DNA of 64,000 bases from Escherichia coli (lineage in GTDB: Bacteria; Pseudomonadota; Gammaproteobacteria; Enterobacterales; Enterobacteriaceae). The notes beneath the pieces are model-generated. The model did not search any database and was not told where the DNA came from. It saw only the letters and a program-made list of their open reading frames with translations. How positions within the stretch are numbered: position 1 is the first letter of the stretch; each line of letters starts with the position of its first letter. Positions 23,433 through 28,996 of the stretch are shown here, in pieces. The DNA is taken from assembly GCF_003334785.1 (NCBI RefSeq), contig NZ_QOWV01000003.1, one strand, 5' to 3'. Made by a program: the position numbers and the translations under genes.

Positions 23433-23933
23433 TGCAGGAAAGCAGGCTGGAGCTACCCAGCCTGCAGTGAAATTAAACTGTCGTCGCTTTCACTCTTTCT
23501 TTATAGATGATTTTTTTGATGCCATCGTTCTACGTGAGAGATAATAAACGTTGTTAGTTCTTTTATTGTTAAGCTTATCCCAATTATCTGGAATTCCTTA
23601 TCCTGTTTTTTTGGGTGGAGTAATAATTTCTGCACATCTAACCATTATTAAATTTAATAATAAGTATCGGGTTTGTTACGATAGAATATTTCTATATCCT
23701 CAAGAATATGCTTTGCCTTATTGCCTGTGACTTTCTGAGATTCAATTATAGTATCGTTAAATTCTAATGTTAAAGAGAACTCTTTTTTCCGCTTTGTGTA
23801 AGTTTAACCTTATATTGATTACCAATATCAAATAAAAAGGTCCTGTAATGAGAATAATCACCTTTAACCTCCTCGGCAAAACAGCAAAGCGTGCAAATAT
23901 ACATAAAGTCTTTCTTACCCCTGATTTTGTTAA

Positions 23934-24137
23934 CTAAATCAATAAATGCGTGAAAAACTTTACTTGCAATAGAACTTGATACTTCTTCTCCAGGTCTAAA
24001 AAATCTTTTGCAATTTTTAACTGTGTTTCTATGTATAAAAAGAAATCTTTGGCATAAGAGATATCTTTATTATTTAGTGCATCTAGCTCAACAGGTAAAG
24101 ATGTCGTTTTGTTGCTATTCACATATGATATATTCAT
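23934..24137 (-). CDS. yjbS: small uncharacterised protein in AT-rich spacer
   Basis: ORF 23934-24176 on minus strand; internal ATG gives 67 aa (MNISYVNSNKTTSLPVELDALNNKD...), the size I recall for YjbS; weak call. Confidence 0.4.
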   Translation of the reverse strand: MNISYVNSNKTTSLPVELDALNNKDISYAKDFFLYIETQLKIAKDFLDLEKKYQVLLQVKFFTHLLI

Positions 24138-24259
24138 ATCATCATCTCCATCGCGAGTAATAAAATTAATCACCATTGTAGGGTAGGGGGCTGGTCAATC
24201 AGAAATCATCTTTATAAACTTCGATTGTTTTTGTAATGCTGTATCATTAAGTTCATTAA

Positions 24260-25250
<991 letters not shown>

Positions 25251-25252
<2 letters not shown>

Positions 25253-25294
25253 CAGAGCGGGAGAGCGTGATGCTCTCCCGAATGCTGTTTTTTT
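25251..25294 (+). terminator. rho-independent terminator after aphA
   Basis: cagagcgggagagcgtgatgctctcccgaatgctgttttttt: stem gggagagc/gctctccc with extended bulged stem and T7 run. Confidence 0.7.
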
Positions 25295-25362
25295 AATCAC
25301 ACCTTTATCCTTTCGCTGTCTTGCTGCAAACTGATTAAGAGAGTTTTATCAAGGAGCAGCAC

Positions 25363-25779
25363 ATGTGGTATCAAAAGACGCTCACGCTTAGCGCCAAATC
25401 TCGTGGGTTTCATCTGGTAACGGATGAAATTCTGAATCAGCTGGCTGATATGCCGCGCGTTAACATCGGCTTACTGCATCTGTTGCTGCAACATACCTCC
25501 GCCTCTCTGACACTTAATGAGAACTGCGATCCCACCGTACGCCACGACATGGAGCGTTTTTTCCTCCGCACCGTTCCCGACAACGGAAATTATGAGCATG
25601 ACTATGAGGGAGCAGACGATATGCCTTCTCATATCAAATCCTCAATGCTGGGAACATCGCTTGTATTGCCGGTGCATAAAGGGCGTATTCAGACCGGCAC
25701 CTGGCAAGGCATTTGGCTGGGGGAACATCGCATCCACGGCGGATCGCGTCGCATCATCGCGACACTACAAGGGGAGTAA
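25363..25779 (+). CDS. yjbQ: UPF0047-family protein
   Basis: 138-aa [39 protein letters not shown]... Confidence 0.88.
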
Positions 25780-25782
25780 AAA

Positions 25783-26139
25783 ATGACCATTTCGGAGTTG
25801 CTACAATATTGCATGGCAAAACCAGGCGCAGAACAGAGCGTGCATAATGACTGGAAAGCGACGCAGATCAAAGTGGAAGATGTACTGTTTGCGATGGTGA
25901 AAGAAGTAGAAAATCGCCCAGCTGTTTCGCTGAAAACCAGCCCGGAGCTGGCGGAGCTGCTACGTCAGCAGCACAGCGATGTGCGTCCAAGCCGCCATCT
26001 GAATAAAGCGCACTGGAGCACCGTGTATCTCGACGGTTCGCTGCCAGATTCGCAAATCTATTATCTGGTGGATGCGTCTTATCAGCAGGCGGTGAATTTA
26101 CTGCCGGAAGAAAAACGTAAATTGCTGGTGCAACTCTGA
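25783..26139 (+). CDS. yjbR: YjbR/MmcQ-family protein
   Basis: 118-aa ORF MTISELLQYCMAKPGAEQSVHNDWKATQIKVED...; starts 3 bp after yjbQ stop. Confidence 0.88.
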   Translation: MTISELLQYCMAKPGAEQSVHNDWKATQIKVEDVLFAMVKEVENRPAVSLKTSPELAELLRQQHSDVRPSRHLNKAHWSTVYLDGSLPDSQIYYLVDASYQQAVNLLPEEKRKLLVQL

Positions 26140-26152
26140 AAGGAAAAGGCCG

Positions 26153-26180
26153 CTCAGAAAGCGGCCTTAACGATTACAGC
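26153..26180 (-). terminator. terminator hairpin between convergent yjbR and uvrA
   Basis: aaaaggccgctcagaaagcggcctt: stem aaggccgc/gcggcctt; T-rich tail on the minus strand (uvrA side). Confidence 0.65.
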
Positions 26181-28996
26181 ATCGGCTTAAGGAAGCGTGC
26201 CGTGTGTGATGCTTCGCACTCCGCGACGGTTTCTGGCGTACCGGAGACGAGGATCTCGCCGCCACCACTGCCGCCTTCTGGTCCCAGGTCGACAATCCAG
26301 TCAGCGGTTTTGATCACGTCGAGATTGTGCTCAATCACCACAATGGTGTTGCCCTGATCGCGCAGTTTATGCAGTACGTCGAGCAGTTGCTGAATATCGG
26401 CGAAGTGCAGACCGGTGGTCGGCTCGTCGAGAATATACAGCGTCTGCCCGGTGCCGCGTTTTGACAGTTCACGCGCCAGCTTCACGCGCTGGGCTTCACC
26501 GCCTGAAAGGGTGGTTGCGGACTGCCCCAGTCGAATGTACGTCAGGCCAACGTCCATCAACGTTTGCAGCTTACGCGCCAGTGCAGGTACGGCATCAAAG
26601 AACTCACGCGCCTCTTCGATGGTCATATCCAGCACTTCGTGGATGGTTTTGCCTTTGTACTTAATCTCCAGCGTTTCACGGTTATAGCGTTTACCTTTGC
26701 ACTGGTCGCACGGCACGTAGATATCCGGCAGGAAGTGCATCTCCACTTTGATCACGCCATCGCCCTGACAGGCCTCGCAGCGTCCGCCACGAACGTTAAA
26801 GCTGAAACGTCCCGGCGTATAGCCGCGCGCACGGGATTCCGGTACGCCCGCAAACAGTTCGCGCACAGGCGTAAACACGCCGGTATAGGTCGCCGGGTTA
26901 GAACGTGGAGTACGACCAATTGGGCTTTGGTCGATATCGATCACTTTATCGAAATGCTCCAGCCCCTGAATATCGCGATACGGTGCTGGTTCGGCGATGG
27001 TCGCCCCATTCAACTGGCGTTGGGCAATCGGGAACAGTGTGTCGTTAATCAGCGTCGATTTACCGGAACCTGAAACCCCGGTGATGCAGGTAAACAGACC
27101 CACCGGCAGCGTCAGCGTCACGTCCTTCAGGTTGTTGCCGCGTGCGCCTGTCAGCTTCAGCACTTTTTCCGGATTCGCCGGAACGCGTTTCTTCGGCACT
27201 TCAATCTTGCGTTTGCCGCTCATGTACTGCCCGGTCAACGACTCCGGCACCGCCATAATCGCTTCCAGCGGACCTTCTGCGACCACTTCACCGCCGTGAA
27301 CACCTGCGCCCGGGCCAATGTCGATCACATGGTCAGCGGCGCGAATTGCGTCTTCGTCGTGCTCCACCACAATCACGGTATTACCGAGATCGCGCAGATG
27401 GATAAGCGTACCCAACAGGCGCTCGTTATCACGCTGGTGCAGGCCGATAGACGGCTCGTCCAGCACGTACATAACGCCAACCAGGCCCGCACCAATCTGG
27501 CTCGCCAGACGGATACGCTGTGCTTCACCGCCAGAAAGCGTTTCTGCCGAGCGGGAAAGCGTCAGGTAATTCAGGCCGACGTTAACGAGGAATTTCAGAC
27601 GATCGCCGATCTCTTTAAGGATTTTTTCTGCAATCTTCGCCCGCTGACCTGCGAGTTTGAGATTGTTGAAGAATTCCATCGCATGACCAATGCTCATGTC
27701 GGAGATAGCAGGCAGCGGCGTATTCTCGACATACACGTGGCGCGCTTCCCGACGCAGACGCGTCCCTTCGCAGCTGGCGCACGGACGATTACTGATAAAC
27801 TTGGCTAATTCTTCGCGTACCGCGCTGGATTCCGTCTCTTTATAGCGGCGCTCCATATTATGCAGCACGCCTTCGAACGGATGACGACGAATGGAGGTAT
27901 CGCCACGATCGTTCATGTATTTGAATTCAATGTTTTCTTTGCCAGAACCGTACAACACCACTTTATGCACGTTCGCGCTCAGGCTGCCCCACGGCGCTTC
28001 GACGTCGAACTTATAGTGATCTGCCAGCGATTTCAGCATCTGGAAATAATAGAAGTTGCGGCGATCCCAGCCACGGATCGCACCACCAGCCAGCGACAGT
28101 TCCGGATTCTGGATCACTCGATCAGGATCGAAATATTGCTGTACGCCAAGGCCGTCGCAGGTCGGGCAGGCCCCCGCCGGGTTGTTAAACGAAAACAGTC
28201 GCGGCTCCAGTTCACGCATACTGTAGCCGCAAATTGGGCAGGCGAAGTTGGCGGAGAACAGCAGCTCTTCCGCTTTCGGGTCGTCCATATCCGCCACTAC
28301 CGCGGTACCACCGGAAAGCTCCAGCGCGGTTTCAAATGACTCGGCAAGACGTTGGGTAAGATCGTCACGCACCTTGAAGCGATCAACCACCACTTCAATG
28401 GTATGTTTCTTTTGCAGTTCCAGTTTTGGCGGATCGGAAAGATCGCAGACTTCGCCATCAATACGAGCACGGATGTAGCCCTGGCTTGCCAGGTTCTCCA
28501 GCGTTTTGGTGTGTTCGCCTTTGCGCTCTTTAATGATTGGCGCGAGTAGCATCAGACGCTTGCCTTCCGGCTGCGACAGCACGTTATCCACCATCTGGCT
28601 GACGGTTTGCGCCGCCAGCGGGACGTCGTGGTCCGGACAGCGCGGCTCGCCAACGCGGGCGAATAACAAACGCAAATAGTCGTGGATTTCGGTGATTGTC
28701 CCCACCGTAGAACGCGGGTTATGAGACGTCGATTTCTGCTCAATTGAGATGGCAGGAGAAAGCCCCTCAATATGATCGACGTCCGGCTTTTCCATCAGTG
28801 ACAGAAACTGCCGCGCGTAGGCGGAAAGGGATTCAACGTAACGGCGCTGCCCTTCGGCATATAAGGTGTCGAAAGCGAGCGAGGATTTGCCAGAACCCGA
28901 AAGCCCGGTCACGACAATGAGCTTGTCGCGGGGGATAACGAGGTTGATGTTTTTGAGATTATGGGTGCGGGCGCCCCGAACTTCGATCTTATCCAT
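26174..28996 (-). CDS. uvrA: excinuclease ABC subunit A
   Basis: 940-aa [60 protein letters not shown]...; two ABC ATPase modules and zinc-finger cysteines. Confidence 0.97.

Follow-up and report, generated by a model that had tools for sequence, protein, structure and literature searches.

The yjbQ-yjbR operon of Escherichia coli: a core-genome gene pair whose linkage is confined to Enterobacterales

Organization of the yjbQ-yjbR locus

The gene pair yjbQ-yjbR was analysed in a 64-kb stretch of the Escherichia coli chromosome (contig NZ_QOWV01000003.1), which is called the window in the following. The yjbQ gene occupies positions 25363–25779 of the plus strand and encodes, from an ATG start, a protein of 138 amino acids (aa) plus stop that belongs to the UPF0047/YjbQ family. 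It is followed on the same strand by yjbR (25783–26139; ATG start, 118 aa plus stop), a gene of the MmcQ/YjbR (DUF419) family, and the spacer between the two consists of exactly 3 nt, AAA (25780–25782). The upstream neighbour of yjbQ is aphA (24539–25252, plus strand), and the downstream neighbour uvrA (26174–28996, minus strand) is convergent with yjbR, the chromosomal gene order being tyrB-yjbS-aphA-yjbQ-yjbR-uvrA-ssb. Clearly, this is the known and annotated two-gene yjbQ-yjbR operon of the E. coli core genome, and its anatomy is ordinary; both the identity and the anatomy of the locus are essentially certain.

A 1-kb stretch of the locus was 100% identical to E. coli K-12 MG1655. The yjbQ-yjbR stretch was matched in 5426 of the 5426 complete E. 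coli genomes in RefSeq, where the products are named 'secondary thiamine-phosphate synthase enzyme YjbQ' and 'MmcQ/YjbR family DNA-binding protein'. The locus belongs to the core genome and its GC content is native (about 0.50–0.52). Within Enterobacteriaceae, ratios of nonsynonymous to synonymous substitution rates (dN/dS; Nei-Gojobori method, comparison with six other genera) were 0.04–0.07 for yjbQ and 0.04–0.08 for yjbR. Because of these ratios, the presence in every complete genome and the Pfam matches of the two products (E = 2.6e-36 for YjbQ and E = 2.9e-21 for YjbR), the two open reading frames (ORFs) are real genes under strong purifying selection and not chance ORFs. A toxin–antitoxin or anti-phage defence pair was rejected as an explanation since the locus is core genome with native GC and neither protein matched a PADLOC model. 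Matching places for the stretch numbered 5434, four of them on plasmid-labelled records, and a few genomes carried two copies.

At the junction of the two genes, the Shine-Dalgarno sequence of yjbR, AAGGGGAG (25769–25776, plus strand), lies within the last codons of yjbQ (...LQGE), the whole junction reading CAAGGGGAGTAAAAAATG. The pattern CAAGGGGAnTrA..ATG with a gap of 2–3 nt is kept in E. albertii, Enterobacter, Salmonella, Superficieibacter and Pantoea. The position of this Shine-Dalgarno sequence inside the end of yjbQ together with the conserved gap suggests that translation of yjbR is coupled to that of yjbQ. Furthermore, the genes share a strand, are only 3 nt apart and are bordered by hairpins at 25258–25280 and 26146–26168, and a terminator scan of 25363–26139 found nothing terminator-like on the plus strand. 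From this anatomy we infer, on good grounds, that yjbQ and yjbR are co-transcribed as one unit. In chromatin immunoprecipitation (ChIP) work, both genes were treated together and placed among those regulated by GadE/GadX, and knockouts of yjbQ or yjbR had no acid-resistance phenotype, the resistance concerned being the glutamate-dependent one (PMC4918353). A MazF ACA site 16 nt upstream of the start codon has been listed for yjbR (PMC5001579). The triplet maps to 25767–25769 and a cut at this place would part the yjbR message, 16 nt ahead of the yjbR start, from that of yjbQ.

The upstream region of the operon contains a Shine-Dalgarno sequence, AAGGAG (25351–25356, plus strand), which was read from the sequence 6 nt ahead of the yjbQ ATG. 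About 30–45 nt 5′ of the yjbQ start lies a conserved 15-nt motif, CTTGCTGCAAACTGA (CTTGCTGCAMACTKA), at positions 25320–25334 of the plus strand. In an alignment of nine Enterobacteriaceae intergenic regions this motif was the best-conserved block of the spacer between aphA and the first gene of the unit. It is kept where yjbQ comes first and also where yjbQ is deleted and yjbR comes first, and the window holds one exact copy. It may serve as a promoter or as an operator.

The aphA gene is set apart from the yjbQR unit by an intrinsic terminator on the plus strand (25258–25294), which is composed of a 10-bp stem with a 3-nt loop (the hairpin at 25258–25280) and a T-run up to 25294. The region 25251–25294 folds with −22.9 kcal/mol (z = −5.95). 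On the other side of the operon, a GC-rich hairpin (26146–26168) lies within the 34 nt that separate the convergent stop codons of yjbR and uvrA. Past the hairpin, the minus (uvrA) strand continues with UUUUCCUUUC and the plus (yjbR) strand only with UUAACGAUU; the folding energies are −17.1 and −15.9 kcal/mol, respectively, with z about −4. A scan for the terminator consensus called this hairpin for the minus strand only, because the U-tract is present on the uvrA side alone. It is thus a good intrinsic terminator for uvrA and, for yjbQR, a hairpin that lacks a proper U-tract. How transcription of yjbQR stops before it enters uvrA in antisense direction is not obvious from the sequence.

These data agree with an earlier note on this DNA in the gene names and coordinates, the 3-bp gap, the setting between aphA and convergent uvrA, and the strong terminator upstream of the pair. 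The terminator that the note had placed at 26153–26180 and assigned to both convergent genes does exist as a hairpin, but it sits at 26146–26168 and has its U-tract on the uvrA side only, while 26174–26180 is already part of uvrA.

Some further features lie upstream of the operon. The ORF that a program had predicted for aphA (24299–25252, 317 aa, TTG start) is over-extended, the annotated start being at 24539 (MRKITQ..., 237 aa). Between tyrB and aphA there is an AT-rich island of ~1 kb (about 23500–24500) with a GC content of about 0.29–0.37 compared with about 0.50 in its flanks, which includes the tiny gene yjbS on the minus strand. This island looks like horizontally acquired or H-NS-type DNA.

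Family membership and predicted activities of YjbQ and YjbR

YjbQ matched PF01894 over model positions 2–116 of 117 and TIGR00149 with 180.3 bits (cut-off 67.75). A sequence search revealed nine UPF0047 structures in the Protein Data Bank (PDB), namely 1VMF, 1VE0, 1VMJ, 1XBF, 2CU5, 2P6C, 2P6H, 1VPH and 1VMH, all of which were deposited as hypothetical proteins. In an alignment with structure sequences from Clostridium, Bacillus, Thermus and Sulfolobus, residues H44, T45, E53, D62, H90, G112, W114, Q115 and E121 of YjbQ were invariant, and the polar part of this pattern would fit an enzyme active site. The AlphaFold model of YjbQ is of moderate quality (pLDDT 73.8, with low confidence for residues 80–91); a Foldseek search with it returned, at E <= 1e-5, the nine UPF0047 entries only, with TM values of about 0.55–0.62. 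Hence yjbQ of the window is the name-giving member of UPF0047, with a full-length match to the family model, all family-invariant residues and the same fold. Membership leaves the role of YjbQ unexplained, because there is no member with a demonstrated primary function. Additionally, the C-terminal half of YjbQ matched the unannotated phrog_37337, which was the sole match in PHROGs.

Two genetic effects have been described for YjbQ. According to the accounts of Morett 2008 in PMC3010111 and PMC3020362, YjbQ has a weak secondary thiamin-phosphate synthase activity, its overexpression rescuing thiE mutants, and multicopy yjbQ rescues a pdxB deletion, which groups it with hisB and php. Between 2010 and 2026, YjbQ has been described as lacking a known or clear function (PMC3010111), most recently with the words 'has no clear function' (bioRxiv 10.64898/2026.06.26.734693). 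We take the main reaction of YjbQ to be the transformation of a phosphate or pyrophosphate ester.

Alternatively, YjbQ might be a genuine back-up thiamin-phosphate synthase, and the operon an accessory of thiamine salvage or biosynthesis to which YjbR is unrelated. Complementation of thiE auxotrophy extends, as PMC3020362 relates from Morett 2008, to homologues from Thermotoga, Sulfolobus and Pyrococcus, and yjbQ has been proposed as a substitute for the missing thiE in Sodalis (PMC3091646). Moreover, yjbQ had to be deleted as well in a thiE-based selection strain (PMC11551756), and in Sulfurisphaera the yjbQ gene is divergent from a gene of the AIRS family, which includes ThiL, although this is a hint only. 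However, the activity is low, was seen on overexpression and is not regarded as the physiological role (PMC3010111). A permissive Rfam scan of 24000–26400 revealed no riboswitch or small RNA, neither a thiamine pyrophosphate (TPP) element nor any other Rfam family; no thiamine genes adjoin yjbQ in the loci examined; and yjbQ is freely lost within Enterobacteriaceae. We consider this explanation unlikely.

YjbR matched PF04237 (formerly DUF419) over model positions 1–87 of 88, and its residues 1–118 matched PDB entry 2FKI, the nuclear magnetic resonance (NMR) structure of 'Protein yjbR' (E = 2.5e-75). Family structures are 2FKI, 2A1V and 2KFP/3H9X, and YjbR has the double-wing alpha/beta fold of the solved members. 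With the NCBIfam model NF007603 (PRK10250 equivalog) the score was 43.8 bits at a cut-off of 183. YjbR is thus a member of the MmcQ/YjbR family, but not the orthologue modelled by NF007603, which we take to be the model of the E. coli paralogue YbdF. PDB profile searches with the family alignments yielded no characterised relative of either YjbQ or YjbR.

Structural likeness of YjbR was highest for the DUF419 family structures (11–17.5), followed by the YdhG-like 'frataxin' from Listeria (8.0), CyaY (5.2), the C-terminal domain of T4 MotA bound to DNA (5.0) and the N-terminal domain of McrB (4.7). The C-terminal 'double-wing' DNA-binding domain of phage T4 MotA (5JLT, 6K4Y) is among the systems closest to YjbR. 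The 'DNA-binding' label of YjbR thus goes back to a weak structural analogy. In an alignment of 34 diverse homologues, K51, R61, N74, K75 and W78 were invariant. Long proteins of the family in our own sample had heterogeneous fusion partners (HD, DUF1801, cupin, DUF3795, tandem YjbR), and fusions to EVE domains, nucleases and helicases have been reported (PMC7641849). Most likely, in line with these invariant residues and reported fusions, YjbR would bind nucleic acid via a conserved basic/aromatic face formed by K51, R61, N74, K75, H77 and W78.

A different activity would follow if YjbR were a frataxin/YdhG-like protein that handles metal (iron) and does not bind nucleic acid. DUF1801, which is fused to one of the YjbR-family proteins mentioned above, is a YdhG-like family, and a CyaY-like fold has been noted (PMC7641849, PMC4440780). 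However, YjbR does not share the functional residues or the electrostatics of CyaY, according to the 2FKI structure paper as quoted in PMC7641849. The residues invariant in the family are basic or aromatic (K51, R61, K75, W78) with no acidic ridge, and the published fusions are those with EVE domains, nucleases and helicases. A role of YjbR in metal handling is therefore improbable in our view.

The functions of both genes had previously been described as undefined. A physiological role is indeed established for neither gene, but the statement went too far in view of the TIGR00149 and PF04237 families, the solved structures, the side activity of YjbQ and the targeting by GadE/GadX. A domain search had been proposed and placed both proteins in curated families (PF01894/TIGR00149 and PF04237, respectively). 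Clear characterised homologues had been named as the result that would speak against undefined functions; named and structurally solved homologues were found, but none with an established primary function.

Distribution of the gene pair

To follow the pair across genomes, YjbR was searched against 1.84 billion representative proteins, which led to the 34-sequence alignment and to 80 loci from named genomes. All 80 loci were checked for homologues of YjbQ, UvrA and AphA. Among 17 Enterobacterales species representatives with a yjbR orthologue, yjbQ was located directly upstream in eight (E. albertii, Enterobacteriaceae bacterium RIT691, two Enterobacter, Superficieibacter, the metagenome-assembled Enterobacteriaceae genome L018, Pantoea and Rahnella) and was absent in nine (three Citrobacter, Pseudocitrobacter, Kluyvera, Enterobacter sp. 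Ag1, Yersinia artesiana and two Budvicia). The pair is also kept in Salmonella, in an insect endosymbiont and in one more distant lineage, whose YjbQ and YjbR are 61% and 54% identical to the E. coli proteins and whose flanks differ.

In Citrobacter, Kluyvera and Pseudocitrobacter lacking yjbQ, yjbR starts about 120–135 nt after aphA and the upstream motif is retained. Directly 5′ of yjbR these genera still contain a remnant of the 3′ end of yjbQ, TAAGGGGAATAA..ATG, which includes the yjbR Shine-Dalgarno sequence. The remnant and the retained motif indicate a secondary deletion of yjbQ and not an insertion elsewhere. The deletion is clean in the Citrobacter freundii group, Pseudocitrobacter, Kluyvera and Enterobacter sp. 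Ag1 (L009–L011, L013, L017 and L019, around locus positions 4870–5000). Citrobacter rodentium and C. sedlakii do encode YjbQ, so the loss appears to be recent and recurrent.

Outside Enterobacterales, a UPF0047, UvrA or AphA gene was found within 5 kb in none of the 63 YjbR-family loci, which include Paenibacillus, Bacteroidota, Actinomycetota, Marinomonas, Cellvibrionaceae and others. Clustering of the neighbouring ORFs of these 63 loci disclosed no functional theme and only lineage synteny, the recurrent neighbours being an IspG-like gene in 13 loci (several of them from Bacteroidota) and an ABC ATPase in nine. The context of yjbQ was studied by a mixed-phylum profile search followed by look-up of sampled loci. 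No YjbR gene neighboured the Gilvimarinus YjbQ gene, which follows a SCO1/SenC gene, the Bacillus subtilis gene (yugU), which stands alone, or the Sulfurisphaera gene, which is divergent from a 422-aa AIRS/AIRS_C-family gene (L101/L102 2205–3905). The YjbQ alignment was also used to scan viral contigs, but its patterns were too enterobacterial, and the single, marginal match of 21 residues was uninformative.

Adjacency of the two genes was thus not conserved across distant lineages, the pair being found only in Enterobacterales, and the yjbQ-yjbR linkage is lineage-restricted and non-obligate. For this reason it carries little functional information. The earlier note had observed that the neighbouring genes give no functional clue, which holds, and had put the pair forward as a candidate for guilt-by-association analysis. 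The linkage is unfit for such an analysis since it does not extend beyond a single order and yjbQ was lost repeatedly. Altogether, the interpretation given there is partly supported.

The distribution also bears on the idea of an enzyme-plus-regulator module, in which YjbR would be a DNA-binding autoregulator, the motif at 25320–25334 its operator, and YjbR would adjust yjbQ expression to the substrate or product of YjbQ. In favour of such a module are the small size and predicted DNA binding of the second product, whose gene follows an enzyme gene and would be translationally coupled to it, and the conservation across genera of a 15-nt motif ahead of the operon. However, yjbR and the motif persist without yjbQ in Citrobacter, Kluyvera, Pseudocitrobacter and Enterobacter sp. 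Ag1, where YjbR would have only itself left to regulate, and none of the 63 loci outside Enterobacterales has a UPF0047 neighbour. The motif lacks dyad symmetry and could be plain promoter sequence, and DNA binding by YjbR is a prediction. We regard a module of this kind as rather unlikely.

A link of YjbR to DNA-damage repair has been considered because of its conserved convergent position beside uvrA. This arrangement was seen in every Enterobacterales locus with enough flanking sequence, including Yersinia, Budvicia (37% identity) and locus L007, even in the absence of yjbQ and aphA, and MmcQ, after which the family is named, comes from a mitomycin gene cluster. Against this, a UvrA gene within 5 kb is missing from all 63 YjbR loci outside Enterobacterales, which makes the proximity simple synteny inside a single order. 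The two genes are convergent and not co-transcribed; extra genes or kilobases of spacer separate them in Salmonella, the endosymbiont, L007 and several others; and in two loci (L002 and L095) uvrA is not next to the pair. A repair function inferred from this position has hardly any probability. Two minus-strand ORFs of 112 and 151 aa are present between yjbR and uvrA in Salmonella enterica (L088 3358–4138) and absent in E. coli; neither had a Pfam match.

A possible role of the operon

Overall, we favour the explanation that the locus is a known operon for an enzyme, YjbQ, and a nucleic-acid binder, YjbR, which do not form an obligate module, and consider this reading probable; its mechanistic part appears to us evenly balanced. 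The genes would form a single unit transcribed from a weak or non-consensus promoter tied to the motif at 25320–25334, and the operon would be small, constitutively conserved and probably stress-modulated. YjbQ would be a cytoplasmic enzyme that acts on a phosphorylated or pyrophosphorylated small molecule with a His/Glu/Asp/His/Glu constellation (H44, E53, D62, H90 and E121) invariant across bacteria and archaea, and the reported activities would be side reactions. YjbR would be a small alpha/beta 'double-wing' nucleic-acid-binding protein. The two proteins would act independently and their genes would be co-expressed for historical reasons. Their juxtaposition probably arose in Enterobacterales, and yjbQ would later have been deleted several times, with yjbR and the upstream motif kept.

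Several points weigh against this explanation. A scan of the 110-nt gap between aphA and yjbQ found no consensus sigma-70 promoter on the plus strand. Co-transcription and translational coupling are both deduced from gene anatomy only. Wherever the pair exists, from Escherichia to Pantoea and Rahnella, its tight junction is kept, and this is compatible with some selective benefit from co-expression. The idea that YjbQ acts on a phosphorylated metabolite draws on two promiscuous phenotypes, and the protein was too insoluble for assay in one study (PMC3010111). Finally, presence or absence of yjbQ was scored next to yjbR, and the counts refer to adjacency.

The genes are annotated, the families curated and the structures solved, so what is seen at the locus is already known and of small weight as a discovery. 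The only new information is the negative result that the yjbQ-yjbR pair is not a conserved module. UPF0047 is one of the small universal families of bacteria, archaea and eukaryotes still without a primary function, and PF04237 carries a 'DNA-binding' name that it owes to analogy.

A similar arrangement exists in Pseudomonas aeruginosa (bioRxiv 10.64898/2026.06.26.734693), where yjbQ opens a bicistronic transcript and the second gene, sutA, encodes a small transcription-associated protein. Some relatives have lost the yjbQ ORF but kept sutA together with the regulatory sequences upstream, a pattern that is seen here in Citrobacter and Kluyvera. In contrast to YjbR, SutA is an RNA-polymerase-binding regulator and not a PF04237 protein, and the Pseudomonas locus has an intergenic region and a second, internal promoter whereas only 3 nt separate the E. 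coli genes. By analogy, the repeated partner of YjbQ might be a small protein that binds nucleic acid or is associated with transcription (YjbR in Enterobacterales, SutA in Pseudomonas), with yjbQ as a dispensable first cistron, a generalization that we hold to be very unlikely. If it were true, the UPF0047 enzyme could make or remove a metabolite that tunes the downstream regulator under stress or in stationary phase, and the pairing of YjbQ with a regulator would be the first physiological handle on the universal UPF0047 family.
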